From the IMG/VR virus record IMGVR_UViG_3300023179_008779, positions 5,250 to 69,249 of that record: a DNA stretch of 64,000 nucleotides; one strand, given 5' to 3'. The stretch is from a virus. Both the position numbers and the translations under genes were made by a program. Positions 31,911 to 62,652 of the stretch are shown here, one piece after another (the first letter of the stretch is position 1; each line of letters opens with the position of its first letter). A model generated the notes under the pieces. It did no database searches and was not told the DNA's origin. It saw only the letters and a list, made by a program, of their open reading frames with translations.

Positions 31911-32291
31911 ATGAAGATAACAGTAAACCAGCTACGTAGAATCATCAAGGAAGAAGTAAAGAGATCGTTGCTCAGAGAGATGGAAGAAGAGGCAGATGCA
32001 TCCTTCGAAATTCCAGAGATCTCTGTACGTGCTGAAGGCGCAGACATGTCTGTTCATGAGTTCGTTGGCATGGTCAAGGGAATGGCAAAGAAGTACAAGT
32101 CCATCACGTTCGAACCGGCAAATGCCCTCGACAAGGGCGATGGATACTCCGCGGAGTATGATTCCCTCCTCTCCTACGGTAGCAGGTCTGAACTCAAATC
32201 TCTTGCTCGTGACCTCGATGAGGAACTCATGGGTGGTGCACAATCGATCAGTGATGAGGACAGCTTCACCAATTACGTCTATTCTGCCTAG
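31911..32291 (+). CDS. Leader-bearing putative internal head protein
   Basis: Begins MKITVNQLRRIIKEEVKRSLLRE; acidic body; ATACTTA at 31882. Confidence 0.7.
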   Translation: MKITVNQLRRIIKEEVKRSLLREMEEEADASFEIPEISVRAEGADMSVHEFVGMVKGMAKKYKSITFEPANALDKGDGYSAEYDSLLSYGSRSELKSLARDLDEELMGGAQSISDEDSFTNYVYSA

Positions 32292-32297
32292 AGGCAA

Positions 32298-32789
32298 ATG
32301 AGCATGAGAATCACGGTCAATCAGCTTCGCAGAATCATCAAGGAAGAAGTTCGACATGCTACGCTGAGAGAGGCTCTCGCCCCCATTGATTTCAATGTCG
32401 GTGATACCGTCCGCACGAAGAACAATCGTTATGCGGCGCCTCTCTACGGTGTGCGATCGAACGGAAGCCCAGACATGAGGGGAAAGATTGGTGAATTGTC
32501 TCCCACTGACATCGCCACGGTCGTATCCTTCGATCCCGCCGAACCCAATCAGGTGCTTCTCAAGCTTTCAGATGGCTCTGATGCATTCGTGTTGCATTAT
32601 ACACTTTTAGCTCCTGCTACAGGCCCAGCAAGAATTGCTCCTATTGGCAACGAGTACTACGTCACATATTATGACAGGGTAGGCAATTCCCGCAACAAAA
32701 AAATTCTTGCAAAGGATTTAGCAGCGGCTGAGATTGAAGCTCGGCGCCAAGCCAAACGTGGCGAAGAGATCGAAATAAGCGAAATATAA
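32298..32789 (+). CDS. Leader-bearing protein with SH3-like domain
   Basis: MRITVNQLRRIIKEEVRHATLREA, then FNVGDTVRTK...KIGELSP...VLLKLSDGSDAFV. Confidence 0.65.
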   Translation: MSMRITVNQLRRIIKEEVRHATLREALAPIDFNVGDTVRTKNNRYAAPLYGVRSNGSPDMRGKIGELSPTDIATVVSFDPAEPNQVLLKLSDGSDAFVLHYTLLAPATGPARIAPIGNEYYVTYYDRVGNSRNKKILAKDLAAAEIEARRQAKRGEEIEISEI

Positions 32790-32852
32790 TCTTCATGATG
32801 TATGAAGATTGAACAAGTGAACACTTGACTCTTCCCGTGTTACGTTTGGACC

Positions 32853-33836
32853 GTGGCCATACGCTCGGTCTCCGATAGCATAGCGTTTTACGAGTCTGTC
32901 TTTGGAAGGGGGCGCATATCTGCGAACGGCATCAACTTCGATGTTCGTTGCCCAATATGCGCCCCTTCCGATCCGTCAAAGAAGAAGCTGTCGATCAGGA
33001 CCGACACTTCGGCAAATCATTGCTGGGTGTGTGGGTTCAAGTCACGATCGATCGCTCCACTGATCAGAAAGTACGGGACTCAATCACAGCTCTCTGCTTT
33101 CAAGGAGCTGTTCGGATTGAACGATCAAGCGTCCCAGCTCGTCACGGGCGAACGTGAGGACGAAAGAAGGGCAGTCTTGCCACCTGACTTTCAACTGCTC
33201 ACGGTAGCACCAGTCTCAGACCCCGACGTCAAAGCTGCCTGGCGGTACCTCGTGGGGAGAGGTCTCACCGAGAAAGACGCGTGGTACTTCAAGTTCGGTC
33301 TGTCCAACGAACCGAGATGGAAGCGAAGGATTCTCATGCCCTCCTTTGACTCGTCCGGCAACCTCAACTACTTCACTGCTCGTGCAATCGACAAGGACAG
33401 GAAGCCGAAGTACGACAATCCCGACGTCGACAAGAACCCCGTCGTTTTCAACGACATCAATCTTGTCTGGACGAAACAGGTCGTCCTCGTCGAAGGTCCC
33501 TTCGACCTCGTGAAGTGTCCCGAGAACACCACAGCACTCCTCGGATCTGAACTGGACGAGAGGCATGAGATCTTCAACAAGATCTTGATCAACAACACGC
33601 CCGTTGCGTTGGCCCTCGACGGTGACATGTGGGACACCAAGACTCCCAAGATTGCCAAGAAGCTTGCAGAATATGACGTCGATTATGTGGTGGTAGACGT
33701 CAGGGCTTGGGGCGATCCAGGTAGCATGTCGAAGGCTGAGTTCGAGAAGGCCTTGGCGGAGGCATCACGTCCCACTTGGGAAGACGAATTCAGCAGAAAG
33801 CTTAAAAGAGCAGGACAAGTTAGTTTGCGTCTCTAA
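32853..33836 (+). CDS. DNA primase (DnaG/gp61-like)
   Basis: CPIC...HCWVC Zn finger; YFTAR, KYDNP, LVEGPFD and ALDGD TOPRIM motifs. Confidence 0.88.
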   Translation: MAIRSVSDSIAFYESVFGRGRISANGINFDVRCPICAPSDPSKKKLSIRTDTSANHCWVCGFKSRSIAPLIRKYGTQSQLSAFKELFGLNDQASQLVTGEREDERRAVLPPDFQLLTVAPVSDPDVKAAWRYLVGRGLTEKDAWYFKFGLSNEPRWKRRILMPSFDSSGNLNYFTARAIDKDRKPKYDNPDVDKNPVVFNDINLVWTKQVVLVEGPFDLVKCPENTTALLGSELDERHEIFNKILINNTPVALALDGDMWDTKTPKIAKKLAEYDVDYVVVDVRAWGDPGSMSKAEFEKALAEASRPTWEDEFSRKLKRAGQVSLRL

Positions 33837-33856
33837 GATCATGATATTTAGCGATC

Positions 33857-34906
33857 ATGAAGTCACCCCGCGCTAAGAAAAGACCCCAGATCACGGAATC
33901 ACAGCTACGTCGTATTGTTAGGAGTGAGATTGCGTATAGAGCACTTGTCAACGAGGGCTTTCTAGAAAAGCTCAAGGGTGGACTAAAGAAGATCGAAGGC
34001 TCCGTCAAGAAAAAAATTGCTGAGAAATCAAAAGAAGTTCTTACCAAGCTAAAAGACGGAACTGAGAAATTAGAAATTCCCGAAGGTATGAAGGAGTTCT
34101 TAGAGCAGATACCCAAGCAAGAAGGCGGAGAATCTCTTGACAAGATAACTGCTCAAATTTCTGGGTTTAAGGAAGCCAAAGCCAAATTAGAAAAAATGGC
34201 ATCTGTCGATCTATCTGCAGTGATGAGTTCAGGCGGCGGCAAGCCTAAGGCTGAGTCAATAAATCGAAGTGAACTTAACATGTTCTTCATTCTAGAAGAA
34301 GAGCGACTTGCTCAGAAAATATATGAAAATGATCTTCGGTTGGCAAGAATTTATGCTAAATCAGCAAATCTGATTAAGGAAGAGGTCGTTCTTGCTGCTC
34401 TAGCTGCTTGGTTTACTGCAATCAAGACTGTTTTTGCTGTTCTTGGTAGTTTTATTTTGGCATCTAAGTTCATGAAGTGGGTCTCAGGCAAATTGGGATT
34501 TGAAAAAGCTGAAAAGTTTTTTGAGCAATCAACTGAAGTGCTAGAAGAGTGGGAAAAAATGTTTAGAGACAAGGTCGCATTCCCACAACCGCTGCAGTAT
34601 GCAGCATACAGGGCTGCCGCAGCTGCCAAGGGACTACTGGGCAAAAAAGAAGACATACTTTCATACGACGATTTTGAGGGGTCAGACGCTCAGAAGAAGG
34701 TCGGAAAAACTCTACACTTTGCAGTTTTGATAGTCGGGTTTGTTGAAGCTGCTCATGAGCTTGGCGAGCACCTGCACGAGCTCATTGAAGATTTTGCTGA
34801 GGAGACTCTGAAGCATAGTGCGGGAGCTGCTGCGGAATTTGGTAAAGAGGCAATTGAGACAGGTGGCGAAGCAGTCAAGTCTTTAGCAAAGACTGCACAG
34901 GGTTGA
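33857..34906 (+). CDS. Leader-bearing protein with hydrophobic helices
   Basis: PQITESQLRRIVRSEIAYRALVNEG; hydrophobic VVLAALAAWFTAIKTVFAVLGSFILAS; ATATTTA 6 nt before ATG. Confidence 0.65.
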   Translation: MKSPRAKKRPQITESQLRRIVRSEIAYRALVNEGFLEKLKGGLKKIEGSVKKKIAEKSKEVLTKLKDGTEKLEIPEGMKEFLEQIPKQEGGESLDKITAQISGFKEAKAKLEKMASVDLSAVMSSGGGKPKAESINRSELNMFFILEEERLAQKIYENDLRLARIYAKSANLIKEEVVLAALAAWFTAIKTVFAVLGSFILASKFMKWVSGKLGFEKAEKFFEQSTEVLEEWEKMFRDKVAFPQPLQYAAYRAAAAAKGLLGKKEDILSYDDFEGSDAQKKVGKTLHFAVLIVGFVEAAHELGEHLHELIEDFAEETLKHSAGAAAEFGKEAIETGGEAVKSLAKTAQG

Positions 34907-34930: not shown

Positions 34931-34940
34931 AATCGTATGG

Positions 34941-37900
34941 ATGCGTATTGCTCACACAGCTGACATTCACATTCGTGCTCTTTCCCGTCATGACGAGTAT
35001 CGAGAGACATTTCAAGACTTTATAGACGATTGTCGATCTCAGCGTGTGGACCACATCTTCGTGGGCGGAGACATCTTCCACACAAAGACTACAGGCATCT
35101 CACCTGAGTACATTGACCTTTTGACCTGGTGGCTCAAGTCGATGGCTGAGGTTGCACCTGTGCATCTGATACTCGGAAATCACGACGGCAATCTTGTGAA
35201 CGCGTCCAGACAAGACGCTGTGTCTCCCATTGTCGATGCATTGGGTGATGACAGGATCAAGCTCTACAAGAAGAGCGGAGCCTACGAGTTGCAGCCCGGA
35301 TACAGCCTCTGTGTCTTTTCAATCTTTGATGAGGACGGGTGGAAAGATGTCAGTCCCGTCGACGGCTCGGTAAACATTGCTGCATATCACGGACCTGTCT
35401 GGGGTAGCCAGACAGAGACTGATTGGCTTGTTGAAGATGGTATGCGGACGGGTTTTTTCGACAAGTACGACTTCACCCTGCTCGGTGATATTCATAAGAG
35501 ACAAGATCTTCTACTGCGCGACGGGCGCCCGGTCATGTGTTACCCAGGTACCCTGATCCAGCAGAATTATGCAGAAGAATTAGTCCACGGGTATCTTATC
35601 TGGGATATTCAGAGTTCTTTAGACTGGAACGTCGAGTTCAGGAAACTAAAGAACAGGAAGCCCTATGTGACTATTGATTGGTCTGGAAGCGTTGATGATA
35701 CATTCACCGCTGCAAAGAGATATCCTAAAGGAAGTAGATTTAGATTCAGATTTCATGAACATGTGACACAAGATGATGTCCACCTTCTGTCAGAGAAAGT
35801 AAAGACTGCACTTCATGCTACTGAAGTGACGTATAAGTCTGATGCCCCTCCTGAGTCACGTGTGTCTCTACTAGACTCTGACAGTGAGGACTTTGCAGAA
35901 GACATTAGGTCACCCGATGCAATTGTCAAGCTTATCAAAGAGCATCACAGTGAAAAAGAGATAAGTGATGAAGACTTACAGATCATCACTTCTCAAGTCA
36001 AGACTTGTCTCTCTGCGGCTTCTACGGGGGAAGAGGTAACAAGGGGTGCAAAGTGGACCCTGAATCACATGAAGTGGGATAACGTGTTTGTCTATGGAGA
36101 AGACAACACCATCGACTTTGATAAGCTCAAGGGTATCGTTGGGATATTTGGGCCCAACCGTATAGGGAAATCTTCGGTCGTTGGTACCATCATGTATTCA
36201 CTATTCAACACGACTGATCGTGGTCCCATGAAGAACTTGCATGTGTGCAACATGAGGAAGCCGTACTGTTCTTCAAAAGTGATAATAACACACAATGGAA
36301 CACCTTACGTGATTGAGAGACAGACGACTAAATCTACCAACCGCCGCGGCGTGACATCGGCTTCAACTGATCTCAATTTATACCGAATTCGAGAAGACGG
36401 AGAATTTGAAGACATGTGCGGCGAGCAGCGCAATGACACAGAAAAAACAATCAGAAATTTGATTGGTAGTGCTGATGACTTTTTACTAACTTCCCTCTCT
36501 GCGCAAGGCGATGCAAATGCATTTATCTCACAGGGGTCATCGAAGCGCCGTCAGGTGCTTACTCGTTTTCTTGACCTAGATGTATTTGATCGTATGCATG
36601 ACGTCGCAAGTAAGGACCTAAACCTTCTAAAGGGTCAATTGCGAAATTTCCCTGAGCGGGATTGGTCGACGCTGGAGAAGGGCAACAAGACTGAGCTTGC
36701 AAGTCTGACTGACCTACTTGACAGAATCAACAGTGTATTTGAAGAAAACCAAAGTCGACTTACAATGTTGCGCTCTGAAATGTCGACGCACAATGCTAAA
36801 CCCGTGACCCAGCACGATGTTGAAGTGCAAGAAGAGAGAGTTTCTACTCTTGAAAAGAAGTCAGAAGACTGTACAGAGTTAATTGCAAACCTCACTGCTG
36901 AGAAGAATGATCTTGAGACGAAGCTCGATGCAATTGAGACTGTGATATCACGATATGATGTCACCGCCTTAAAAAGAAAGCAAGATGCTCAACGCACGCT
37001 TGAGAAAGCAATAGTTGAACTTCGCCATTCTGCTGATCGTGAATTGACTACTCTAACTCAGCAGAAGAAGTCTCTAAAGATATTAGACGAAGTTCCATGC
37101 GGAGACGATTATCCTACGTGCAAGTTCATCAAAGACGCTCATGGTATTAAGCTGAAGCTGTCTCAACAAGAGCAAGCTGTGACTCGGGCACAGGATGCCT
37201 TGAAAGAAGCTGAGACTGCAGCTGTAGCAGCTAAAGATGATACGATTGACGATAAATTGTCAAAGCATGCTAAAGCTTCAGATCTTGCAGCAAAGTTGCG
37301 GTTAGAGATATCACGCAAAGAGACTGAACTTGAGCGCCAGAGATCTACTTGTGATTCATGCGGTTCTTCGCTCGATGAGGCAAAGAAGACGCTTGTTGCA
37401 CTAAAGTCTGCCTTGAACGAGAAGGAGAGCAAGATCGTCTCAAGGATTAGGATCGAGATGGACGAGATATCACGCAAGCTTAAAGCACTAGAAGAGAAGA
37501 AGATCACGGCAATCGACTCTCGTAGTAAGCTCAAAGCAATGATTGACAATCTGCGTGTCGAGAAAGAAAGACGAGACGAGCTGCTTGCAAAAATGAGAGT
37601 CCAAGAGCTTGTCTCTACTGCTTTTTCTAAGAAGGGCATCCCGATGCTTATTACAAAGACTCAGCTGCCAAGGATCAACGCTGAGGTTTCTAAAGTCCTT
37701 CAAGGCATTGTTGACTTCACAATTGAGCTTGAGAATGATGAAGAGTCTGATGCTTTGGAGATTTACATCAATTATGGTGACTCTAAGCGGGTTGTAGAGT
37801 TGTGTAGTGGCATGGAAAAGACGATTGCTTCAATCGCCCTCCGTGCGGCCATGACCAACATCACCACACTTCCAAAACCTGACATCTTCATTATTGATGA

Positions 37901-38078
37901 AGGGTTTGGCACCCTGGACAATGCGGGCGTCGAGTCTTGTAATCGTCTTCTTGCATCGCTGAAGAATCAATTCAAGACTGTTGTAGTGATCACTCATGTC
38001 GATGGGATAAAGGACGCTGCTGATCACATCATTGAAATCACAAGAAATGAGAAAGATTCAAGAGTCGAGATAGCGTGA
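34941..38078 (+). CDS. Fused SbcD/Mre11 (gp47) nuclease and SbcC/Rad50 (gp46) ATPase
   Basis: ADIH, GGDIFH, GNHD and LGDIH phosphoesterase motifs; GPNRIGKS Walker A, coiled coil, CSGME signature, IIDEGFG Walker B, ITH. Confidence 0.92.
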   Translation: MRIAHTADIHIRALSRHDEYRETFQDFIDDCRSQRVDHIFVGGDIFHTKTTGISPEYIDLLTWWLKSMAEVAPVHLILGNHDGNLVNASRQDAVSPIVDALGDDRIKLYKKSGAYELQPGYSLCVFSIFDEDGWKDVSPVDGSVNIAAYHGPVWGSQTETDWLVEDGMRTGFFDKYDFTLLGDIHKRQDLLLRDGRPVMCYPGTLIQQNYAEELVHGYLIWDIQSSLDWNVEFRKLKNRKPYVTIDWSGSVDDTFTAAKRYPKGSRFRFRFHEHVTQDDVHLLSEKVKTALHATEVTYKSDAPPESRVSLLDSDSEDFAEDIRSPDAIVKLIKEHHSEKEISDEDLQIITSQVKTCLSAASTGEEVTRGAKWTLNHMKWDNVFVYGEDNTIDFDKLKGIVGIFGPNRIGKSSVVGTIMYSLFNTTDRGPMKNLHVCNMRKPYCSSKVIITHNGTPYVIERQTTKSTNRRGVTSASTDLNLYRIREDGEFEDMCGEQRNDTEKTIRNLIGSADDFLLTSLSAQGDANAFISQGSSKRRQVLTRFLDLDVFDRMHDVASKDLNLLKGQLRNFPERDWSTLEKGNKTELASLTDLLDRINSVFEENQSRLTMLRSEMSTHNAKPVTQHDVEVQEERVSTLEKKSEDCTELIANLTAEKNDLETKLDAIETVISRYDVTALKRKQDAQRTLEKAIVELRHSADRELTTLTQQKKSLKILDEVPCGDDYPTCKFIKDAHGIKLKLSQQEQAVTRAQDALKEAETAAVAAKDDTIDDKLSKHAKASDLAAKLRLEISRKETELERQRSTCDSCGSSLDEAKKTLVALKSALNEKESKIVSRIRIEMDEISRKLKALEEKKITAIDSRSKLKAMIDNLRVEKERRDELLAKMRVQELVSTAFSKKGIPMLITKTQLPRINAEVSKVLQGIVDFTIELENDEESDALEIYINYGDSKRVVELCSGMEKTIASIALRAAMTNITTLPKPDIFIIDEGFGTLDNAGVESCNRLLASLKNQFKTVVVITHVDGIKDAADHIIEITRNEKDSRVEIA

Positions 38079-38374: not shown

Positions 38375-38758
38375 ATGCCTAAGACGATCAACATCAACGC
38401 CCTTGGCCAAGCCATCGATACGACCTGGGGTCGCTCTTCAACACCACACACGGCTTCATACTCAGTAAAGTTTACACTGTTGGGTGGTGACAGGATGCTG
38501 GCGTCTTACCAAGTGGTCACCAATTTCGTCTCTGAGAAAGAAATGATCCTTATGAAGCGTCAATGTCAGCGGGAGTCTGATGACGTCATCGCAGAGCATG
38601 TTAAGGCTGTCAAAGAAACATACAGGCAGCTTACAGGAGATAGTCTCACCGTCAAAGAAGATAGCTCCACTGATTCTCTAGAGATCATTGGTTTCAATGT
38701 CCACAATCCAAAGAGGACGGCATACTTTCGTAAAAAGACTGTATTTGAGCTTGTATGA
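38375..38758 (+). CDS. Hypothetical protein directly upstream of the terminase
   Basis: AGGAG RBS, ATATTTA at 38348, ATGA overlap with the terminase gene. Confidence 0.65.
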   Translation: MPKTININALGQAIDTTWGRSSTPHTASYSVKFTLLGGDRMLASYQVVTNFVSEKEMILMKRQCQRESDDVIAEHVKAVKETYRQLTGDSLTVKEDSSTDSLEIIGFNVHNPKRTAYFRKKTVFELV

Positions 38759-40389
38759 GTAGCAATCCGCAAGCCTCACCACCCATGTCTCGGCAGGCAA
38801 TTGTCGCCGAGATCTTGAAGTGCGGCAGGAATCCTGTGTACTTCATGAAAAAGTACTGCAAGATCCAGCACCAACTTCGAGGACTAATACCCTTTGAGAC
38901 CTATGACTTCCAGGATGACTGTGTCAACCAGTTTCAAGAGCATCGATTCAACATAGTCCTCAAATCTCGCCAGTTGGGTCTCTCCACTGTCACGGCGGCA
39001 TACTGCGTCTGGTACGCCATCTTCAAGAAGGACAAGAACATCCTCGTCATCGCGACGAAGCTTAACACGGCCATCAACTTCATCAAGAAGGTGAAGACGA
39101 TGCTGGACTCTCTCCCGCAGTGGCTTCTTCTCACTAAGTTCGAACCCACAAAACAGTCAATAAGATTCACCAATGGGTCTACCATCACTGCAGTCCCAAC
39201 TTCACCTGATGCAGGTCGTTCTGAGGCATTAGCACTGTTGATAGTAGATGAGGCAGCTTTTATTAGAGATTTTGATGAGATCTGGACGTCACTATACCCG
39301 ACACTATCAACCGGTGGTTCTGCAATCATCCTTTCAACTCCGAATGGTGTGGGAGGACAATATTACAAATTGTGGATGGAGGCAGAGAGCGGCGCAAACG
39401 ACTTCAATCCAATAAGATTGTCATGGAATGTCCACCCAGAGCATGATCAGGCGTGGTTTGAAAAAGAGACCAAGAACCTGCCAAAGAGGAAGGTTGCCCA
39501 AGAGTTTCTTTGTGACTTTATATCATCAGGTGACACGTTCCTACAACCCGGCGAATTTGAGAAGCTGAGGGGAATGCTTAAGCCACCCATAGAGAAACGC
39601 GGCCACCAAAATGGTGTGTGGGTGTGGTCTAAGCCTGAAGTTGGTAGAAAGTATGTTTTGTCAGCCGACGTCGCCCGCGGCGATGCTGCAGATTTCTCAA
39701 CTTTTCACATCATCGACTATGATACATGTGAAGTTGCAGTCGAGTTTATGGGCAAGATACCTCCCGATAAATTTGCTGATATACTCAGTGAATATGGCAA
39801 AGAGTATAATGACGCCCTAATATGTCCTGAACAGAATACGTTCGGATATTTTGCTTGTGTGAAGCTTCGAGATATGGGATATCCAAGGCTATATTACCAA
39901 AATCACACAGGTGATGCTTATGAATATCACTCTATCAATCCCGACGCAATCCCTGGTTTTTCTACACAGACAAAGACCCGTACTCAAATTCTTGCCAAGC
40001 TTGAAGAGCTTGTAAGAAATGGGAAATTGCGCACCTATTCACAACGACTTTTTGATCAGCTTCAAGCGTTTGTTTGGAACGGATCAAAAGCCATGGCTTC
40101 TAAAGATGCTCACGACGATCTTATCATGAGCTTAGCGATCGGTACGTGGATCGTTGCGGGTGATAGTTCATACAATGAAGCAGGTATGAATATGGCGTAT
40201 GCAATCCTCAAGGCAACGCAGCGTGACAATAGAGGCGTCGAGACTCTACCCGGTGGCATCAACGATGTACGACCCGTACCAAATCCGCACATGCAAGGGA
40301 TGACTCCCCAGAGTGTTTCAAGACCTCGACCGTCTGACCAGGCTGGTCATTACGGAAACATGACAGATTATTCTTGGCTCTTAAAGTGA
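38755..40389 (+). CDS. Terminase large subunit (T4 gp17-like)
   Basis: KSRQLGLS Walker A, LIVDEAAF Walker B, STPNG, ADVARG...DFS, HDDLIMSLA nuclease motifs. Confidence 0.95.
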   Translation: MSSNPQASPPMSRQAIVAEILKCGRNPVYFMKKYCKIQHQLRGLIPFETYDFQDDCVNQFQEHRFNIVLKSRQLGLSTVTAAYCVWYAIFKKDKNILVIATKLNTAINFIKKVKTMLDSLPQWLLLTKFEPTKQSIRFTNGSTITAVPTSPDAGRSEALALLIVDEAAFIRDFDEIWTSLYPTLSTGGSAIILSTPNGVGGQYYKLWMEAESGANDFNPIRLSWNVHPEHDQAWFEKETKNLPKRKVAQEFLCDFISSGDTFLQPGEFEKLRGMLKPPIEKRGHQNGVWVWSKPEVGRKYVLSADVARGDAADFSTFHIIDYDTCEVAVEFMGKIPPDKFADILSEYGKEYNDALICPEQNTFGYFACVKLRDMGYPRLYYQNHTGDAYEYHSINPDAIPGFSTQTKTRTQILAKLEELVRNGKLRTYSQRLFDQLQAFVWNGSKAMASKDAHDDLIMSLAIGTWIVAGDSSYNEAGMNMAYAILKATQRDNRGVETLPGGINDVRPVPNPHMQGMTPQSVSRPRPSDQAGHYGNMTDYSWLLK

Positions 40390-40426: not shown

Positions 40427-40729
40427 ATGCCACAGATCACACTAAAGAGACTTCAACAGATAATTCGCGAAGAGCTCAGCCTCAACGAAGGAGCAGATCA
40501 TGATTCTGCTGCTAAAGTGATGAGCAGCGCAACGAAGCTTCTCAAGGCAGTCGAGTCGTTCAAATCTGCTTCATCTGAGAAAGCTCGCTCTGAGATGGGC
40601 ACTCATCTGGATGAAATTGAAAAGATTCTTAACAGGGTTGTTGGATCACCCATGCAATATGTTGATGCAACGGAACCCGCAATGAAGAAGGTTACTTTAA
40701 AACCTGCCAAGGACGAAACAACGATGTAA
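40427..40729 (+). CDS. Leader-bearing small protein between terminase and portal
   Basis: MPQITLKRLQQIIREELSLNEG; ATACTTA at 40401; GAGG RBS. Confidence 0.7.
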   Translation: MPQITLKRLQQIIREELSLNEGADHDSAAKVMSSATKLLKAVESFKSASSEKARSEMGTHLDEIEKILNRVVGSPMQYVDATEPAMKKVTLKPAKDETTM

Positions 40730-44999: not shown

Positions 45000-45003
45000 T
45001 ACA

Positions 45004-46089: not shown

Positions 46090-46323
46090 ATGAGACTAAC
46101 AAACAGATTGCTACGTAGAATCATCGAAGAAGAAGTTGCCAAGTTTGGTGACATGCAGGATGTCGAGAAGGTCAAGGCCGACGAGACTGATGCAGACGAG
46201 TATGCAGATGCACTCGAGAAGAAGATTGATTACATGAAGGCACTCAAGGTTGAGGAGTCACGTCTTCGTCGCCGTATAGCAAAGATCAATGAGACCCGTC
46301 GTCGTCTAACACGCGGTCTATGA
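46090..46323 (+). CDS. Leader-bearing small coiled-coil protein
   Basis: MRLTNRLLRRIIEEEV; GAGG RBS; ATATTTA at 46056. Confidence 0.7.
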   Translation: MRLTNRLLRRIIEEEVAKFGDMQDVEKVKADETDADEYADALEKKIDYMKALKVEESRLRRRIAKINETRRRLTRGL

Positions 46324-53417: not shown

Positions 53418-53424
53418 ATACTTA
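53418..53424 (+). promoter_or_regulatory. ATANTTA putative late promoter (representative copy)
   Basis: Same motif at 28332, 31882, 33844, 38348, 40401, 46056, 50877, 53418, 54116, 54662 and 56052, each intergenic and 5-30 nt before a start codon. Confidence 0.65.
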
Positions 53425-54127: not shown

Positions 54128-54640
54128 ATGAAGATCCGTCTATCCCAACTCCGTTCCATCATCCGCCAGACCATCCTCACCGAAGAGAAGGATCGCAAGC
54201 TCAAGAGTGCCTGGTGGATCACACCGACCGGCGTACCCGAGGAGTTCGCCGAGGGCTACTACCACACGGACATCGGCACCATGTGGGCTCTCGGTGAATA
54301 CACCGACGAGGAGACCAAGAAGCTCGCCTACGATACCGACCCTGACGAACCCGACTACGAACCCGACGAATACTCCTCTATAGACCACGAAAAGATGGAG
54401 ACCGACATGATGAAGACCAAGGGCTTCGCCAAGGCCCGCCTGTGGAAAAACGGCCGCCTCACGCTGGGCGCCTGGACCGTCACCGACGAGCACCTGGCGG
54501 GCCTCAAGTCGATTGCGGCCTCGTCCGGCCTCCGGGGCGATGCTCCCGTTGAGATCTCACAGGAGTCTCCCGGAAAGGCCGTGCAGCTCACCGTCAATGA
54601 CGTCAGGCGGGCATATTCCGCTGCTGATTTAGACTGGTGA
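54128..54640 (+). CDS. Leader-bearing hypothetical protein
   Basis: MKIRLSQLRSIIRQTILTEE; ATACTTA 5 nt before ATG. Confidence 0.7.
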   Translation: MKIRLSQLRSIIRQTILTEEKDRKLKSAWWITPTGVPEEFAEGYYHTDIGTMWALGEYTDEETKKLAYDTDPDEPDYEPDEYSSIDHEKMETDMMKTKGFAKARLWKNGRLTLGAWTVTDEHLAGLKSIAASSGLRGDAPVEISQESPGKAVQLTVNDVRRAYSAADLDW

Positions 54641-54674: not shown

Positions 54675-55637
54675 ATGAAGATCCGTCTGTCCCAACTCCG
54701 CCACCTCATCCGCGAGGCGATCGTCTCCGAGATCTCCCGCTCCACCCCTGAGTTCGCAGAGGGCACCAAAAAGTTCGACGACATCACCCCGTTCGGCCAC
54801 TATGGGGTCCTCCGTCCGCCCCAGACTGAAGAGGAGCGGGCGTTCGATGCCGAGTTCGTGGACTTCGCCGTGAAGAAGTTCGATGAGGTGTTCAAGACCG
54901 GCGGCTTCTACACGGCGAAGTTCCTCTCCCGCGGCCAGAAGGGGTTGCTCGTCCTGTGCGCCGACGACTACATCGACGAGGCATTCGGCGGGGACGTGGT
55001 CCACGCTCTGCTCCACGAGTCCACCATGAAGGGTGCCCACCAGCGCTTCAAGTTCCAAGGCCGTGATCCGGACCGTCCTGAGATGAACGACAACCTGTAT
55101 GAGATCCTCGTGTACTGGGTGCAGTCGGGCATGGACCAGGCGAAGAGGGTGGGCGCCGACAACTCCAACATTGCTGTCTCGATCGCGCATCGTCTCCCCG
55201 CGCAGCCCAAGCCGACCCTTGAGGTCGTGAAGGACTTCTTCAACCGCTACGGCTCGCAGTTCGAGGAGAGCCTCATCGACCAGTACTTCCCCGACATGAT
55301 CGACGAGCTGGGCGGCAATGAACCCGGTGCCCTGCCCCGCAACGTGCAGGAGGAGTGGCTCGCCGCGATGGACAACACGGTGGGCCGCATGGGACACGAG
55401 GGACGAGAGGGCAGGACCACGGCCCAAGCCTTCATCAACGAGGTGCTCCGCCGATTCATGAAGACTATGGGCGGTGATCCTTCTCTCGGCAAGGGCGCAC
55501 GGAAGGACTATACCTCAGAGTCCCATGCCGGGGCACTGATGGCGTGGTACAACCAGCTCCGCCTCAAGACCCAGGTCCTGTCCAAGAAGTACGGGATCGA
55601 GCTCACCGCGGTCCGCAGAAAGTTTGATAAGAAATGA
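54675..55637 (+). CDS. Leader-bearing hypothetical protein
   Basis: MKIRLSQLRHLIREAIVSE; ATATTTA 6 nt before ATG. Confidence 0.7.
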   Translation: MKIRLSQLRHLIREAIVSEISRSTPEFAEGTKKFDDITPFGHYGVLRPPQTEEERAFDAEFVDFAVKKFDEVFKTGGFYTAKFLSRGQKGLLVLCADDYIDEAFGGDVVHALLHESTMKGAHQRFKFQGRDPDRPEMNDNLYEILVYWVQSGMDQAKRVGADNSNIAVSIAHRLPAQPKPTLEVVKDFFNRYGSQFEESLIDQYFPDMIDELGGNEPGALPRNVQEEWLAAMDNTVGRMGHEGREGRTTAQAFINEVLRRFMKTMGGDPSLGKGARKDYTSESHAGALMAWYNQLRLKTQVLSKKYGIELTAVRRKFDKK

Positions 55638-56038
55638 AGCTAAGAATCTCCGACCTCCGTCACATCATCCGAGAGGTGCTGGAGGAGCAGGGTCTCACGT
55701 TCTACCACGGCACTCTGAAGGATGCTGTCCCATCCATATTGAGGACAGGCCTCCGTGCTGGACAGGGTTGGGGCGGCGCCGCCAAGCCGGGCGTCTTCTT
55801 GTCGACATCACCTGACTCTGCCTTATACTGGGCGAAGATGTCCTTCCTTACCCGGCACGGCCTACCAGCAGAGGAGTCTTCCTTCGATCGGGTGGACCCG
55901 TCGCAGCTCGTCGTCCTGCGGGTCGATGTTCCGCCCGAAGAGAGGTCCAACATCGTGCCGCGGCAGAGGAGCTACAACCTCGCAGGAGACTCTCAGTACG
56001 TGGGAAGCGTCCCGCCTGGGTGGATAAGCGTCCTATAG
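55634..56038 (+). CDS. Leader-bearing ADP-ribosyltransferase-fold protein
   Basis: MKLRISDLRHIIREVLEE, then FYHGT...SILRTGL...GVFLST...ALYWA...VLRVDV...YVGSVPPGWI. Confidence 0.7.
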   Translation: MKLRISDLRHIIREVLEEQGLTFYHGTLKDAVPSILRTGLRAGQGWGGAAKPGVFLSTSPDSALYWAKMSFLTRHGLPAEESSFDRVDPSQLVVLRVDVPPEERSNIVPRQRSYNLAGDSQYVGSVPPGWISVL

Positions 56039-56087: not shown

Positions 56088-56750
56088 TTGAAGGTGCTGC
56101 TGGTCTCCACCACGACCAACGAACGACGGTCGTCCTCCCGTGCTGCGCTGGCGCTGGTCGAGCGAGCGCTGGAAGGCCGCGGCCACGAGGTGAAGGTGAT
56201 CGACGCCAACAAGATACACATCGTCAAGAATCTTTCCTGCTACGCGGACGGCGGCGAGCAGTGCGGTGACCCAGAGTCCGGTCCCTATCGATGCTGGGCA
56301 CACAAGCACGCGGAAGAGGAGCCCGACAAGTACGGCGGCAAGGATGAGATGCCGCAGATCTATGACGGTCTGGCCTGGGCTGAAGCCGTTATCTTTGCCA
56401 CCTCCGTGCGGTGGGGCAGCCACTCAGCCCTCCTCCAGACGATAATTGAGAGGATGAACACGCTGGAGAACCGCCACACAGTCTACGGTGAGCCCAACCC
56501 CCTGTGGGGCAAGAGGTGCGGCGTCGTGGTGACCGGTCAGCACTGGAAGGCTTCCGAGGTGGCCAACCGCCTCATCGAGGTGTTCGACCTCTACGGCTTC
56601 CACACATCACCCTCCGCGGTGCTCTCGTGGCAGCACGTGTCCGACATGGACGAGGAGCTAGAGGACAACAACGTCGATCCATTCCGCCGCGAGATGCGTG
56701 AGGAGCGGTGGCTCCCAGTACTCAATCTGCTCCGCGCTCTGGATCTGTGA
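56088..56750 (+). CDS. Flavodoxin-like / NADPH-dependent FMN reductase family protein
   Basis: DEMPQIYDGLAWAEAVIFATSVRWG...LQTIIER...GKRCGVVVTG; Cys cluster; AGGAG before TTG. Confidence 0.8.
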   Translation: MKVLLVSTTTNERRSSSRAALALVERALEGRGHEVKVIDANKIHIVKNLSCYADGGEQCGDPESGPYRCWAHKHAEEEPDKYGGKDEMPQIYDGLAWAEAVIFATSVRWGSHSALLQTIIERMNTLENRHTVYGEPNPLWGKRCGVVVTGQHWKASEVANRLIEVFDLYGFHTSPSAVLSWQHVSDMDEELEDNNVDPFRREMREERWLPVLNLLRALDL

Positions 56751-56813: not shown

Positions 56814-57794
56814 ATGAGAAAGAACCTGAATGAGAGTCGCTTGCGTAGCATCCTTCGTGACGCTGCCAGATCTGCCTTGAAAGAGAATAGACGCCGCCGC
56901 ATGTTTGAGGATGCAGATCCCAGCAAGATCGATTCGGATAAGTTTCCCAACAAGCTGAGCGCCGTCGATCGCTCCACCGCGAAGCAGCTCGCCTCGGGAG
57001 GCCTCGAGGACAACGATAAGAAGGACGACATCGCGGGGGCGGAGAAGGTTTCCCTCGCCGCCGCGGCCCTGAAGGCCTCGCAGACCACGATGGACTTCGG
57101 TAAGTTCGTGGGCATGGCGATTCAGATGATGGGCAAGCTGGGCAGCTTCTCAAGCGGCGCCGGGGGAGACCTCGGGGCGATCATATCGTCCGACAATCAC
57201 ATCATGGACGGTCACCATCGCTGGGCCGCCACGCTCATGGTGGATCCCAAGGCCAACGTCGGGGGCCTGAAGGTTCAGCTCCCGGGCGAGAAGCTGGTGG
57301 GCGTCCTCAACGTCTGGACCGTCGCCCACGGCGGCGCCGGCAAGCCCTCCGACACGGACCTTGCCTCTCTCACGAGCGACTCCGTCGCGGAGAAGTTTAA
57401 GGAGATGGCCTCGAAGGGCGGCAAGTTCCTTCCGTCCCCCGAGGAGATGCTGTCGGCCTTCAAGAAGTCGGGATTCGACTCCCTCGACGCCGCGGCCGCC
57501 CACGTCAAGAAGAACTGGGACGCCACGTCCAAGGCGCGCGCCGTCCTGGGATGGATGCCCGCCAAGGTCGACATGCCCGCCATCGAGCCCGATCAGCTGC
57601 CACAGGTGGCGTCGGACATTGCCTCCGGCAAGATGGACATCAATCCGCCTTACGCCGCGGACACAAAGGGTCAGGCGAAGGCCTCTTCGTCGGAGAAGGG
57701 GAGCGAGGCCTCCGTACAGAAGTCCGGATTCGACCGCGGCGGCGCCGTGATGGTGGAGCGCTGGCAGCGCCTCGCCGGTATCATCAAGGGTTGA
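56814..57794 (+). CDS. Leader-bearing ParB/Srx-like domain protein
   Basis: LKASQ...IISSDNHIMDGHHRWAA; N-terminus LNESRLRSILRDAARSALKE; C-terminus VMVERWQRLAGIIKG. Confidence 0.75.
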   Translation: MRKNLNESRLRSILRDAARSALKENRRRRMFEDADPSKIDSDKFPNKLSAVDRSTAKQLASGGLEDNDKKDDIAGAEKVSLAAAALKASQTTMDFGKFVGMAIQMMGKLGSFSSGAGGDLGAIISSDNHIMDGHHRWAATLMVDPKANVGGLKVQLPGEKLVGVLNVWTVAHGGAGKPSDTDLASLTSDSVAEKFKEMASKGGKFLPSPEEMLSAFKKSGFDSLDAAAAHVKKNWDATSKARAVLGWMPAKVDMPAIEPDQLPQVASDIASGKMDINPPYAADTKGQAKASSSEKGSEASVQKSGFDRGGAVMVERWQRLAGIIKG

Positions 57795-58525: not shown

Positions 58526-58530
58526 TTGAG

Positions 58531-59568
58531 ATGAAGAATGTGTTGGTGACAGGCGGCGCCGGATTTATTGGATCACATCTTGTGGACCACCTGCTCACTC
58601 TCAGCGATGTTGAGGTGGTCGTGTGCTATGACGCAACCACATATGCAGGATCGCGCTGGAACGTTTTTGATGCCTTCAAGGATCCACGATTCACATTCAT
58701 CGATGGTAACATCTGCGATAAGCATAGATTTTTGGAAGCCCTCCGACGCTTTGGCATCGACACCGTCTTTAATTTGGCTGCAGAGACCCACGTTGACCGC
58801 TCAATTGCCGGACCGTCAACATTCGTTCAGACCAATGTTGTGGGGACGCTTGCCGTCCTTGAGTCTATTCATGTACACACCTCCGACGGACGACCGTGCC
58901 GATTGATCCACGTCTCGACTGATGAGGTATACGGGACTCTTGAGGTCGGCTCCTTCAACGAAAATTCAACAATCCAGCCCAACTCTCCGTACGCTGCCTC
59001 AAAGGCTGGCGGAGATCACCTTGTTAGGGCATACAATGTCACGTACGGCCTGGACACCGTGACGACACACTGCTCCAACAATTACGGTCCCCGTCAGTTT
59101 CCAGAGAAATTGATACCTCTTGCAATCTCTCGTGCCGCATCCATGCTTCCCATTCCTATGTACGGAGATGGGCAACAGGTTAGAGACTGGATCCACGTTT
59201 CTGATCACTGTGCGGCCCTTGTTCAGGCTGCACTCAACGCTCCTTCCGGTTCAACCTACAACATCGGGGGCAATTGCGAGCTCACCAACAAGAGCGTCCT
59301 GAGTACAATCTGCGGCGTATTGGATCAATTACGACCCCAGCCTTCTCCATACAGCAGGTTGATCGCGTCTGTGCCCGATCGCCCCGGCCACGACCGTCGT
59401 TATTCAGTTGACACTTCCAAGATCAGCGCTGACATGAGGTGGATGCCTCAAATGAAATTTGAGGAGGGGATAGCTTCGACAGTCCTATGGTACCTGTCAC
59501 ACCCTCGGTGGCTTCTTGAAGTGTCAAAGCCCGCCGCGGACGCCCGCACCCGGAGCATCTATCAATGA
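58531..59568 (+). CDS. rmlB: dTDP-glucose 4,6-dehydratase
   Basis: GGAGFIG, AAETHVDRSI, STDEVYG, YAASK, NNYGPRQFPEKLIP, DRPGHDRRY. Confidence 0.95.
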   Translation: MKNVLVTGGAGFIGSHLVDHLLTLSDVEVVVCYDATTYAGSRWNVFDAFKDPRFTFIDGNICDKHRFLEALRRFGIDTVFNLAAETHVDRSIAGPSTFVQTNVVGTLAVLESIHVHTSDGRPCRLIHVSTDEVYGTLEVGSFNENSTIQPNSPYAASKAGGDHLVRAYNVTYGLDTVTTHCSNNYGPRQFPEKLIPLAISRAASMLPIPMYGDGQQVRDWIHVSDHCAALVQAALNAPSGSTYNIGGNCELTNKSVLSTICGVLDQLRPQPSPYSRLIASVPDRPGHDRRYSVDTSKISADMRWMPQMKFEEGIASTVLWYLSHPRWLLEVSKPAADARTRSIYQ

Positions 59569-60644
59569 GGGGTTTGATTCTCGCCGGCGGCAGCGGAACT
59601 CGACTCCGACCCATCACACACACAGGTGCCAAGCAACTTGTTCCGGTTGCAAACAGGCCAATAATCTTTTACGTGATCGACTGCCTCGCGGCAGCTGGCA
59701 TCAAGGAGATAGGAGTTGTTGTGTCGCATGAGACTTCCGCGGAGATCCAAAGCACAGTCGGCGACGGATCTAATTGGGATGTTTCCATAACCTACATCAC
59801 ACAATCGCGCCCTGGTGGTCTTGCCCATGCAGTCCTTGAATCAAAGGACTTCTTGGGAACCGATGATTTCTGCATGTTCCTGGGCGACAATCTTGTCGGG
59901 GATCAAATGCTCGCCACCGCTCTTCGCTTTGATGCCGATAAGTCTGTGTCAGCGTCCCTCCTGCTTAAGGAGGTCCCTAATCCAACCGCGTACGGGGTCG
60001 CAGAGGTCGACAGGTCAGGCCGCATCGTCGGCCTTGAGGAAAAGCCGAAGCATCCCAAGAGCGATCTTGCTCTAGTAGGAATCTACTTTTTTAGGCATGA
60101 TATTTTCGACGCCATAGCCAAGATAGGCCCGTCCCGCCGAGGCGAGCTAGAGATTACAGATGCAATCAACGTGCTGATACGTGATGGCAAGAGGGTCGAG
60201 TTCAGTGTTCTTGGATCCTGGTGGCTTGACACCGGAAAGAAGGATGATCTCATCCTTGCCAACAGCACGGTCCTCGATGACCGAGCGAGGAGATCCGTGC
60301 TCGGATCAGTCGATTCAATCTCCTCTATATCCGGCAGGGTCACTATCGATGCCGGTGCATTGGTGGAGGGTTCGATCATCCGCGGCCCAGCCGCCATAGG
60401 CCCATATTCCATCATAAAGAATTCGTACGTTGGACCCTATACATCCATCGATTCTGGCGCTTCGATAATCAACAGCAGAGTTGAAAATTCAATCATCATG
60501 CAGGGATCAGAGGTGGTGGGAGCCAACATTGCCGACAGCGTCCTCGGCCGCAGAGTGTCCGTCAGACCTGCAATGCAGAAGCTCAGCAAGTCTCTATGCC
60601 TCATGGTTGGAGACGATTGTAAGATTGAAATTCCGGAGGAGTGA
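59565..60644 (+). CDS. rmlA: Glucose-1-phosphate thymidylyltransferase (long form)
   Basis: LAGGSGTRLRP...KQLVPV, LGDN, EEKP, RGELEITDA, WLDTG; C-terminal beta-helix extension. Confidence 0.92.
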   Translation: MRGLILAGGSGTRLRPITHTGAKQLVPVANRPIIFYVIDCLAAAGIKEIGVVVSHETSAEIQSTVGDGSNWDVSITYITQSRPGGLAHAVLESKDFLGTDDFCMFLGDNLVGDQMLATALRFDADKSVSASLLLKEVPNPTAYGVAEVDRSGRIVGLEEKPKHPKSDLALVGIYFFRHDIFDAIAKIGPSRRGELEITDAINVLIRDGKRVEFSVLGSWWLDTGKKDDLILANSTVLDDRARRSVLGSVDSISSISGRVTIDAGALVEGSIIRGPAAIGPYSIIKNSYVGPYTSIDSGASIINSRVENSIIMQGSEVVGANIADSVLGRRVSVRPAMQKLSKSLCLMVGDDCKIEIPEE

Positions 60645-60645
60645 G

Positions 60646-61485
60646 ATGAAGACGTTGATATTCGGGAAAGGCATGCTGGGGAGGAGGATTGCTGATTATC
60701 TACCCGGCTCAGTTCTTTCTTCTGAGGACATCACGGATCCCATTGCTATAACATGGGAGATCATGAGGCACCAACCCGATGCCGTCATCAACGCCGCGGG
60801 CAAGACCGGACGTCCCAATGTCGATTGGTGTGAGGAACATCGTGAAGAGACCTATCGATCAAACGTTGTTGGACCGTTAGCTCTTGCAGAGGTCTGTGCC
60901 CACAAGAATCTTTACCTACTTCACATGGGCAGTGGCTGTATCTTCTATGGAAGATCACCCGATCCAGTTGGGTGGAGAGAAGAAGATTATGCAAACCCCG
61001 TTTCTTTTTACGCACGGACCAAGTATTCAGCAGATTTGATCTTATCAAAATTACCCAACATTTCGATCGTTCGCATAAGGATGCCGATCGACTCGTTACC
61101 TGGGTCCAGGAATTTGATCGACAAGTTGGTGCAGTATAAGAAGATCGTCAGCGCTGATAATTCAGTGACTGTCGTTGAAGATCTATTGAAGGTTATCGAA
61201 GGAGTTGTTAGTCAGAGGGCTACGGGTATATTTCATGCCACGAACCCAGGTGTCATGAGGCATGAAAATCTCTTGGGCCTCTATAAGCAGTACGTTGATC
61301 CATCACACACATGCGAATTTACGACTCCTGAGGATCTTTTAAGAGAAGGTCTCATCACCAAGGAGCGATCTAATTGTATTCTTTCTTCTCGACGCTTGGA
61401 AGAATTGGGGCTGGGCATGAGACATATCAGTGTTGCACTACCTGATGTCGTTAAGAAATATGCCGCGGTAGTTATTGGAACTTAA
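60646..61485 (+). CDS. dTDP-4-dehydrorhamnose reductase, NRS/ER-like (possible bifunctional 3,5-epimerase/reductase)
   Basis: Start MKTLIFGKGMLG at 60646; AAGKTGRPNVDWCE, GSGCIF, YARTK, RIRMPI, RSNCIL. Confidence 0.8.
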   Translation: MKTLIFGKGMLGRRIADYLPGSVLSSEDITDPIAITWEIMRHQPDAVINAAGKTGRPNVDWCEEHREETYRSNVVGPLALAEVCAHKNLYLLHMGSGCIFYGRSPDPVGWREEDYANPVSFYARTKYSADLILSKLPNISIVRIRMPIDSLPGSRNLIDKLVQYKKIVSADNSVTVVEDLLKVIEGVVSQRATGIFHATNPGVMRHENLLGLYKQYVDPSHTCEFTTPEDLLREGLITKERSNCILSSRRLEELGLGMRHISVALPDVVKKYAAVVIGT

Positions 61486-61492
61486 TTCAACA

Positions 61493-61510
61493 CATATATA
61501 GACTATAGAT
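61493..61510 (+). promoter_or_regulatory. Conserved upstream element, copy 2 (CATATATAGACTATAGAT)
   Basis: Near-identical to 56782..56799. Confidence 0.65.
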
Positions 61511-61527
61511 CAGCAGGAAAGACAGAC

Positions 61528-62652
61528 ATGAGACGAACACTCACGCCCAACAGACTCAAGATGATAATGAAGGCAGCGGCAAAGCGCACATTGCGTGAGG
61601 CTCGTGATCACTACGTAGATCTTGTCCTTGAAGAGGAGGACAAAGCCCCAGAACCAGAGGGTGGCTCAGAAGAAACACCTGACGTCGAGCTCGACGTTTC
61701 GAAGGGTCCTTCTGCTGCTGTTGCTTACCTCAATGGTCCCGGAGCTGACAAGAGAGTCAGGGCTTTGCTCGATGCAGGAAGGGACGACGGATCCGAGGAC
61801 GATGAAGCAGCCGCAGTTTCTGAAGGATCTGCAACGATCGGCGATCTCGTACCCACCCAGGTCGAGATAGAGTTGACCAAGTCCATTGCCTACCCCCTTG
61901 CAAACTTCAAGTCCATGAAGAAGATGATCAGCGGCGGCGTCCAGAAGATCGCCGACACCATGATCGTCAAGTCAGGGAAACTCATCGTCGACGGCCACCA
62001 CCGTTGGTCCTCCCTCTTCTCTGTCGCTGGTCCCAAGGGAGTGATCGCGGCGGTCGACATCTCGCTGCCCGAGACCGATGCTGCATCGGTCCTGGCCATC
62101 GTCCAGACAGCGATCGCAGCGACAACCGATGGCCCTGTCCCGAAGGCCAAGGCGGGCGGCATGAACATCCTCGGTAAGAGCAAGGACGAGCTTGTCAAGC
62201 TAATCACGTCGGCTGTCGGTCAGAGCGGTGAGGCAGGCGAGATTCTGTCTGATGATTACGTCTCCGCTTGCCTGTCGGATCCCGCTGTTTCGAAGCACTT
62301 TGGTCTTGCAGGCTCATCCGAGAAGGAAGAGACAAAGGCAGAGTCCCGCCGCAGAGGCAAGCTCCTTGAGGCTCAGGGCGAATCAGACGAAAAGATCGAG
62401 CAGGCTCGTAAAGCAATCATTGAAAAGGTCGCAGACAACCTCTCACAGATGAACCAGCCCGCCGAGGGATCTCCTCCACGCGTCGACATGCCGCAGCTCG
62501 ACAAGGCAGGCAAAGGCGCCCAGGGCGTCTTCGATGCGCTAAAGTCCGGTGAGGTCAACTACAAGGCTCCTTTCAAGGCTGAATCAAAAAGCCGTAGCGG
62601 TCAAGTCATGGTCGAGCGCTGGCAGCGTCTTGCCGGCATCATCAAGGGTTGA
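61528..62652 (+). CDS. Leader-bearing ParB/Srx-like domain protein (paralog of 56814)
   Basis: LVPTQ...LIVDGHHRWS; PPRVDMPQL; C-terminus VMVERWQRLAGIIKG. Confidence 0.75.
   Translation: MRRTLTPNRLKMIMKAAAKRTLREARDHYVDLVLEEEDKAPEPEGGSEETPDVELDVSKGPSAAVAYLNGPGADKRVRALLDAGRDDGSEDDEAAAVSEGSATIGDLVPTQVEIELTKSIAYPLANFKSMKKMISGGVQKIADTMIVKSGKLIVDGHHRWSSLFSVAGPKGVIAAVDISLPETDAASVLAIVQTAIAATTDGPVPKAKAGGMNILGKSKDELVKLITSAVGQSGEAGEILSDDYVSACLSDPAVSKHFGLAGSSEKEETKAESRRRGKLLEAQGESDEKIEQARKAIIEKVADNLSQMNQPAEGSPPRVDMPQLDKAGKGAQGVFDALKSGEVNYKAPFKAESKSRSGQVMVERWQRLAGIIKG

Follow-up and report, generated by a model that had tools for sequence, protein, structure and literature searches.

In bacteriophage T4 the internal proteins IPI–III and Alt carry N-terminal propeptides of 10–19 residues, which target them to the prohead core and are removed by the protease gp21 after (L/I)-x-E (Mullaney and Black 1996, via PMC9026906, PMC3012670, PMC5694885). 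Glu-to-Asp changes block this processing in T4 (PMC9026906). A single conserved capsid-targeting sequence (CTS) on diverse internal proteins is established for the T-even phages (PMC3012670, PMC9026906), and the CTS has already been suggested as a general route by which T4-like phages load varied proteins (PMC9026906, PMC3012670, PMC5694885). In the giant phages phiKZ, 201phi2-1 and SPN3US, the propeptides of head and ejection proteins are cut at (S/A)-x-E by gp175/gp245; in SPN3US, gp53 and gp54 begin with the same 15 residues ahead of diverged bodies (PMC5694885, PMC9026906). In phage P1, 30 residues of an N-terminal segment of DarB are enough to bring the protein, or a reporter, into the capsid that delivers it to the host (PMC9024508). 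Here we describe a short leader peptide at the N-terminus of 12 proteins encoded in a 64-kb stretch (the window) of the 69,249-bp viral contig IMGVR_UViG_3300023179_008779, together with a second, C-terminal tag shared with the presumed scaffold.

The source is an uncultured freshwater T4-like giant phage. Lake and freshwater metagenomes contain DNA of the window stretch, no RNA run being among the listed sequencing runs that contain it, and identical copies of window proteins occur on a 213-kb contig. The best matches of the major capsid protein are in the 484-kb uncultured phage LR756508.1 (49%), Flavobacterium phage immuto (43%) and Microcystis phage Mel-JY01 (35%); megablast found no match to the head module among cultured phages, and by these comparisons there appears to be no close cultured phage. 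A freshwater Bacteroidetes phage clade with an identical head-gene neighbourhood has been published, and the available parts of that paper give a ribosomal protein S21 gene as typical of the clade and make no mention of shared N-termini (PMC9723584). An S21 gene was not found in one minus-strand ORF (open reading frame) of the head module, the sole ORF checked.

A shared N-terminal leader on unrelated proteins

The leader is an N-terminal tag, modular in its use, widely distributed in related phages and linked with head genes and a prohead protease. The 12 ORFs that a first-pass annotation had listed as sharing an N-terminal leader all start with ATG on the + strand and have the quoted N-terminus, and all the coordinates hold. 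We refer to the genes by their first nucleotide; the leader starts at residue 10 in 33857 and at residue 2 in 40427.

31911–32291, + strand: leader protein of 126 aa, canonical leader MKITVNQLRRIIKEEV..LRE, body function unassigned (34.6 bits)
32304–32789, + strand: leader protein of 161 aa, body unrelated to 31911 (33.1 bits)
33857–34906, + strand: leader protein of 349 aa, body with a long hydrophobic stretch (26.6 bits)
40427–40729, + strand: conserved leader protein of 100 aa, encoded between the terminase and portal genes (42 family members in relatives)
45615–46037, + strand: conserved leader protein of 140 aa directly 3′ of the protease, diverged leader (family of 70)
46090–46323, + strand: conserved small acidic leader protein of 77 aa (family of 72)
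53431–54096, + strand: leader protein of 221 aa, body like viral hypothetical clusters (leader profile)
54128–54640, + strand: leader protein of 170 aa, body unassigned (leader profile)
54675–55637, + strand: leader protein of 320 aa, body unassigned (leader profile)
55634–56038, + strand: leader protein of 134 aa, predicted ADP-ribosyltransferase-fold body nearest Tpt1/KptA (AlphaFold2 and Foldseek)
56814–57794, + strand: ParB/Srx-like protein of 326 aa, diverged leader, scaffold-type C-terminal tail ERWQRLAGIIKG (nt 57756–57791)
61528–62652, + strand: paralogue of 56814, 374 aa, diverged leader, same C-terminal tail (nt 62614–62649)

A profile built from the ten strong leaders scored those ten at 21.6–34.6 bits and the next best of the 1,141 six-frame segments of the whole contig at 4.1. 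When each leader was left out in turn, nine of the ten were recovered at 12.9–31.0 bits, unrelated sequence scoring at most 4.8; the one missed was that of 45615 (2.2 bits, rank 19), which we accept as a leader protein because its orthologues in relatives have canonical leaders at 24–27 bits. The two copies that had been called looser fared less well: the leader of 56814 scored 2.5 bits, yet 34 of 120 homologues have a detectable leader, and 61528 is not among the profile matches listed. When the first 30 residues of 57 window ORFs were all compared with one another, 13 of the 14 best-scoring pairs joined two of the 12 listed genes. Similarity stops after the leader, as had been claimed, the bodies of the 12 proteins forming 11 BLAST families (E<1e-4) with 56814 and 61528 as the sole paralogues. 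Mean pairwise identity of the leaders at codon positions 1, 2 and 3 was 0.53, 0.64 and 0.36, and same-residue codon pairs used the identical codon in 146 of 297 cases; selection acts on the leader peptide, not on the DNA. In public collections each of the nine leader genes looked up is called from the leader ATG; for 54128 this is the NCBI call, and JGI calls a longer form.

The leader consensus is M-K-(I/L)-T-x-x-Q-L-R-R-I-I-(K/R)-E-E, in which L8 is invariant, I12 nearly so, and T4, Q7, R9, R10, E14 and E15 are the strongly conserved polar residues. An I-x-E site of the T4-protease type ends at residue 14, and a second site usually lies near residue 22. Sites were counted on one representative of each of the 45 body families (defined below) with at least 60 residues. 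The leaders had been said to end in hydrophobic-x-E, and (L/I/V/M)-x-E does end at residue 14 or 15 in 40 of the 45, a count that is partly circular because E14 belongs to the model defining the matches. The motif ends a second time at residues 17–28, mostly 18 and 21–23, in 35 of the 45 representatives, which are not fully independent because the second site can be inherited together with the leader. As background, the motif occurred 26 times over the 32 positions of residues 29–60, giving approximately 9 of 45 expected per 12-residue span, and protease-type sites directly after the leader are in 4-fold excess. The term amphipathic, used in the first-pass annotation, is weakly supported: in AlphaFold2 models the leader is helical (residues 5–18 of 55634 and 7–30 of 56814) at a confidence below that of the body, and AlphaFold2 places both the leader and the C-terminal tag as separate helices on lower-confidence linkers, but the hydrophobic moment exceeds 95% of shuffles in just one of ten leaders.

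The bodies could be assigned in a few cases. The prediction of an ADP-ribosyltransferase (ART)-like payload was borne out by the model of 55634 (pLDDT 81.8), for which Foldseek gave 15 matches in the PDB at E≤0.001; the 14 listed were all Tpt1/KptA (best 2.4e-5, TM by query 0.46–0.50), other ARTs came next, and the Atlas concurred. A Pfam ART family was absent at E≤0.01. Y24, H25, G26 and T27, among others, are invariant in 16 homologues; in some homologues the N-terminus is a different one or the leader is followed by an insert. In four of them (P0009–P0012) the leader is replaced by an N-terminus ending in a glutamate run after L/F-x, which may be a further type of tag. The ParB-like assignment of 56814 and 61528 is moderately supported: a DGHHR-type motif is present in 119 of the 120 listed homologues of 56814, and the eight best VIA-align rows, whose names we take to be those of ParB/Srx-type proteins, reach modest Z values of 4.0–5.3 (next row 2.9), but Pfam ParBc_2 scores 13.9 bits against a cut-off of 23.6; the best Foldseek E-value was 0.02. 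A GNAT payload had also been proposed; the body of 53431 resembles viral hypothetical clusters, and acetyltransferase is here a weak lead. Sequence searches of three payloads against PDB chains gave nothing below E 0.5, and those of 15 proteins against NCBIfam nothing below E 0.09. Of 61 larger leader proteins of relatives, three exceeded a Pfam cut-off, as a YkuD L,D-transpeptidase, an AAA_33 kinase-like protein and an RNA-repair HAD protein, and a tRNA-ligase 2H/CPD domain fell just under its cut-off.

Several leader genes are preceded by the same short element:

53418–53424, + strand: ATAYTTA site, candidate promoter element of head operons and leader genes

Further ATAYTTA sites before ORFs begin at 31882, 33844, 38348, 40401, 46056, 54116 and 54662. 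Eight of the ten + strand sites end 5–27 nt before an ORF start, and the eight ORFs are seven leader genes and one heading the terminase operon; in four cases the distance to the ATG is 5–6 nt, and these four would have leaderless or nearly leaderless mRNAs if the element is –10-like. Neither form is over-represented in the window (CATAYTTA 5 against 2.6 expected, ATAYTTA 12 against 9.4 expected); ATAYTTA is striking by its placement only, and a promoter role for it is a guess. Upstream of 56814 and 61528 there is instead a common CATATATA(A/G)ACTATAGAT.

Head module, relatives and a second tag

By Pfam and PHROG annotation the window encodes a T4-type head module:

38755–40389: large terminase
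40774–44148, + strand: portal of T4 gp20 type, its gene split by an HNH-endonuclease-containing intein (Pfam Portal_T4 2.2e-70, HNH_3, Intein_splicing)
44977–45618, + strand: prohead protease, Peptidase S77 of T4 gp21 type (Pfam PF03420, E 2.3e-24)
46904–48907, + strand: presumed scaffold of 667 aa, acidic and coiled-looking, placed between the protease and capsid genes
48938–50788, + strand: major capsid protein of T4 gp23 type (Pfam Gp23 7.1e-76)

The gp21 homologue that had been reported is thus present, but its ORF does not start at 45004 as had been given. It scores 86.4 bits against PF03420 (cut-off 27) and is 31% identical to T4 gp21 (E 6e-22), the GEL(D/N)HP and SSRG motifs aligning.

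A search with the protease returned 473 relatives from IMG/VR, and we scanned 82 loci (1.12 Mb), namely 80 fetched by protease together with L001 and L002. The leader profile gave 202 matches of at least 10 bits in these loci, against one in the same segments reversed; all but one (201) lie on the protease strand and 159 have Met at model position 1. The 245 leader ORFs of the 82 loci, the window, a complete relative and LR756508.1 (21 leader matches) fall into 46 body families with bodies of 57–390 aa. Three families are large (72, 70 and 42 members) and the other 43 small or single; the large ones are those of 46090 (before the scaffold), 45615 (after the protease) and 40427 (before the portal), all at fixed places in the relatives. 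The small core proteins of T4, gp67 and gp68, are encoded in the corresponding head region (PMC9026906); the 46090 protein may stand in for such proteins, by position only, and BLASTP of the 45615 protein against T4 gp68 gave no better than E 9.

The complete relative (G001, 297,894 bp) has 17 leader ORFs at 9.4 bits or above, all 17 on the head-gene strand, which holds roughly 64% of its long ORFs. They are spread over 47–87, 193–195, 214 and 247–268 kb, and an orthologue of 33857 adjoins the head module. The tagged genes at 47–87 kb share an accessory stretch with metabolic genes, transposases, a lysozyme and a sigma factor; 48 ORFs at 40–100 kb, annotated with Pfam, were of mixed accessory character and did not point to a time of expression. 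The stretch from 49 to 76 kb contains, among its accessory genes, four OrfB/Cas12f1-like (TnpB-type) genes, of which one adjoins a resolvase-type gene, and an IS200-type Y1 transposase gene. A 308-aa ORF on the minus strand (approximately 192.3–193.3 kb) has leader copies at residues 1–16 and 80–95 with a Cys-rich segment between them, like a fusion of two tagged genes.

A degenerate DNA pattern of the canonical leader was found in at least 160 IMG/VR stretches, and 80 loci fetched by it held 232 distinct leader ORFs, frequently in tandem arrays. Five large contigs found in this way have 20–44 leader ORFs each (E≤0.01) and an S77 protease in all five; in five genomes besides G001 every leader gene listed is on the protease strand. 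Related genomes of 200–300 kb have 17–44 tagged genes. Of 25 further contigs, ten have the protease and the 15 without it are estimated to be 14–44% complete. The expectation that a leader profile scanned over the contig and its relatives would find N-terminal matches on variable bodies, co-occurring with a gp21-type protease, was confirmed, the S77 protease being present in each of the nine contigs with leaders whose completeness is 51% or more. Across 596 Gb of archaeal and bacterial genomes the DNA pattern was found in ten stretches, all in MAG (metagenome-assembled genome) records, one of these contigs being equal in length to a viral contig of IMG/VR, and the motif is, by this search, confined to viral sequence. 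A tblastn search of cultured phages with the 77-aa protein and a 23-aa leader gave no match and is uninformative for queries so short and simple.

The position of the presumed scaffold between the protease and capsid genes is kept in relatives. An island in it, VVEIDExMLRREIxRMxxLRE at residues 303–322 (nt 47810–47869), is conserved in all 13 scaffolds compared and has invariant residues across 21 sequences. It had been put forward as an internal copy of the leader; we rejected it as a demonstrated leader repeat, the profile comparison not being significant (hhalign probability 0.25, one aligned column).

The C-terminal end of the presumed scaffold is a different matter. Its tail DRWARLAGIVK (nt 48872–48904) recurs at the ends of 56814 and 61528 as ERWQRLAGIIKG, giving a consensus (E/D)RW(A/Q)(R/K)LAGI(I/V)K that ends the scaffold and two ParB/Srx-like leader proteins. 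A tail profile scored these three at 30.8–39.0 bits and anything else in the contig at no more than 2.8. In the relatives it gave 62 matches of at least 10 bits, all but one of them 0–2 residues from a stop codon, against a single match of 10.4 bits in the reversed control; most are scaffolds, and four are ORFs of 270–353 aa, two of these being identical copies. In immuto, where it reads RWQKLAGIIK, and in Mel-JY01 the tail is on the gene directly upstream of the capsid gene. Among the 120 listed homologues of 56814, 34 have leader and tail, 47 the tail only and 38 neither; in three, the tail motif is found at residues 12–17, in the leader's place, with none at the C-terminus, and the two tags therefore look interchangeable. 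That a copy of the scaffold end appears able to replace the leader is the best indirect argument for a prohead destination of both tags. Scaffold C-terminal coat-binding domains, such as that of P22, and encapsulin cargo-loading peptides are short terminal peptides that bind the inner side of an HK97-fold shell, and cargo with a copy of such a coat-binding peptide is co-encapsidated. By analogy, the RW(A/Q)(R/K)LAGI tail on the scaffold and the ParB/Srx-like proteins likely follows the same coat-binding logic.

Probable capsid targeting and its alternatives

On this evidence we think it probable that the leader is a capsid-targeting propeptide removed by the S77 protease, similar to the T4 CTS in its working and unrelated to it in sequence. 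Core binding, cleavage, packaging and ejection, which we infer, would proceed as follows. The leader helix, approximately 14–23 residues at the extreme N-terminus, would dock the protein into the assembling prohead core; the gp21-type protease would then cut at either or both of two sites, behind the conserved I-x-E that ends at residue 14 and behind the (L/I/V/M)-x-E near residue 22, and cleavage would free the cargo inside the head. Three tagged proteins would be fixed core components of the head module, and the remainder fast-changing cargo, including the ADP-ribosyltransferase-fold protein and the two ParB/Srx-like proteins, that would leave the capsid together with the DNA. The scaffold-tail copy would be a second tag doing the same job from the C-terminus. 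Capsid targeting was also the proposal of the first-pass annotation, which is partly supported: each sequence-level prediction of capsid targeting that was open to test held, namely the N-terminal position, the variable bodies, the (L/I)-x-E sites, the gp21-type protease and three conserved head-module proteins that bear the leader. The YkuD cell-wall enzyme, which has a leader and no visible N-terminal signal peptide, would fit delivery by the virion. A bolder version, in which two interchangeable tags load the products of up to 40 genes of a complete 284-kb genome, which are trimmed and injected as an exchangeable arsenal for host takeover and anti-defence, is one that we hold only tentatively and would not yet expect to be correct.

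A number of observations weigh against capsid targeting. Most of the 20–44 tagged genes of relatives are crowded into arrays at a long distance from the head module, a layout that would also suit early host-takeover genes. The leader profile has zero matches in T4, P-SSM7, RM378 and Mel-JY01, and there is therefore no homology with an experimentally proven CTS; no cultured member of the clade with a virion proteome was found. The presumed scaffold, so named by position only, shows no similarity to T4 gp22 (BLASTP E 5.2) and has no Pfam or PHROG match. Just three of the 61 larger cargo proteins are over a Pfam cut-off, and the AAA_33 kinase-like and RNA-repair HAD proteins, together with the CPD domain under the cut-off, look cytoplasmic. 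To these are added the single leader of ten that passes the hydrophobic-moment test, and the circularity and shared inheritance that affect the site counts.

The same arrays, the cytoplasmic-type enzymes and the location of the G001 tagged genes at 47–87 kb within an accessory stretch would be accommodated if the leader were an N-terminal module with a non-capsid job on small host-takeover proteins: a helix that docks to a factor of the host or the phage, an arm for oligomerisation or nucleic-acid binding, or a tag governing stability or degradation. The conserved T4, Q7, R9, R10, E14 and E15 fit any specific partner, and RNA-repair enzymes are compatible with either destination. Such a module, however, leaves unexplained why three tagged proteins are fixed in the head module, why the leader can be replaced by a copy of the scaffold tail, why protease-type sites are in 4-fold excess after it and why its genes are strictly co-oriented with the head genes, and we consider it unlikely. 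It would be still less likely, in our estimation improbable, that the leader is a protease-removable pro-peptide and nothing more, silencing potentially harmful enzymes until the head protease is active, with packaging left to other means. Two conserved protease-type sites in the leader and the ART-fold and ParB/Srx (nuclease-like) cargo are what a silencing peptide would predict, but the cargo is mostly small and non-enzymatic, the 14 conserved upstream residues exceed the need of a three-residue cleavage motif, and T4-type proteases are active inside proheads (PMC9026906), hence the substrate must be there.

Very improbable, finally, is an origin of the similarity in common descent of whole genes with diverged C-terminal parts, or in a nucleic-acid signal, for instance a recombination site or the context of a translation start. 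The most similar leaders do sit on neighbours (31911 and 32304, 54128 and 54675), and the promoter-like ATAYTTA accompanies the leader; against this, the bodies differ in length (57–390 aa) and in fold (ART against ParB/Srx), one and the same body can follow a different N-terminus or be set off from the leader by an insert, and third codon positions are the least conserved (36% identical against 53% and 64%), with 146 of 297 codon pairs the same.

If capsid targeting by the leader is correct, one short peptide would mark the capsid-carried, DNA-codelivered proteins of abundant lake and ocean phages, and hundreds of 'hypothetical' genes would become candidate injected effectors (anti-defence, nucleic-acid-modifying and cell-wall enzymes). 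The principle that T4 applies to three to five proteins would have been scaled to dozens of cargo proteins and duplicated by a scaffold-mimic tag, and new tags would be available for packaging foreign proteins in phage heads. Were the cargo polymorphic and delivered, the tag would serve as a sequence marker for injected phage effectors in metagenomes. The cultured relative immuto offers bench access to such a system: it encodes the scaffold tail, and its leader-like genes number one or two (two leader-profile matches; immuto35A_190 and immuto35A_198).

Neighbouring genes and comparison with known systems

Two TnsA-like endonuclease genes (30879 and 50889) and a large homing endonuclease gene (51730) lie in or beside the head module. 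A second protease gene, ClpP/S49-like (11338–11991; PHROG 'head maturation protease', E 5e-31), is far from it and adjoins a helicase and PhoH. At 34941–38078 a single 1,045-aa ORF fuses an SbcD/Mre11-type phosphoesterase to an SbcC/Rad50-type ATPase. Between the leader genes, at 56088–56750 and 58531–61485, there are an FMN reductase and three nucleotide-sugar genes (dehydratase, nucleotidyltransferase and RmlD-like reductase), and a glycosyltransferase cluster occupies the minus strand at 137–8711. The large unannotated + strand proteins at 26912–28261 and 28347–30869 have a common C-terminal motif, ..A(K/R)L(S/A)(R/Q)PV.K..G......DF, and rank second among the C-terminal pairs of the window. 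The G+C content ranges from 37% to 60% along the contig, reaching approximately 60% in the capsid gene and in the leader-gene block at 54–58 kb.

In the phiKZ-type phages, as would be the case here, a diverged homologue of gp21 cuts a large number of internal head proteins after glutamate; their propeptides are mostly longer than 100 residues and are not a single portable peptide, whereas here a short leader stands on dozens of bodies. P1 DarB is one protein, and the available parts of PMC9024508 do not present its N-terminus as a many-protein motif or as a tag ending in a protease site. A full-text literature search for motif strings, with supplements outside its reach, found no paper. None of the papers listed for capsid targeting together with huge-phage topics concerned this leader by title or abstract, nor did any of those listed for the CTS together with cyanophage and T4-like topics by title.

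The closest parallel is the T4 CTS. Common to both are a short N-terminal propeptide on unrelated proteins, an (L/I)-x-E end, a gp21-type S77 protease and a cargo protein of predicted ADP-ribosyltransferase fold, as Alt is in T4. They differ in that the sequences are unrelated, with 0 leader-profile matches at E≤10 in the T4 genome; in that the present leader has 14–23 residues and two sites, as against 10–19 residues; in the number of tagged genes, which is 12 on this fragment and 17–44 per relative against a handful in T4; in that the present leader also stands on conserved small head-module proteins; and in the second, C-terminal tag copied from the scaffold, the present system being known from sequence alone. 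The principle is not new, because a shared CTS on diverse proteins is already established; what would be new here is the leader sequence, the scale of its use and the second tag.

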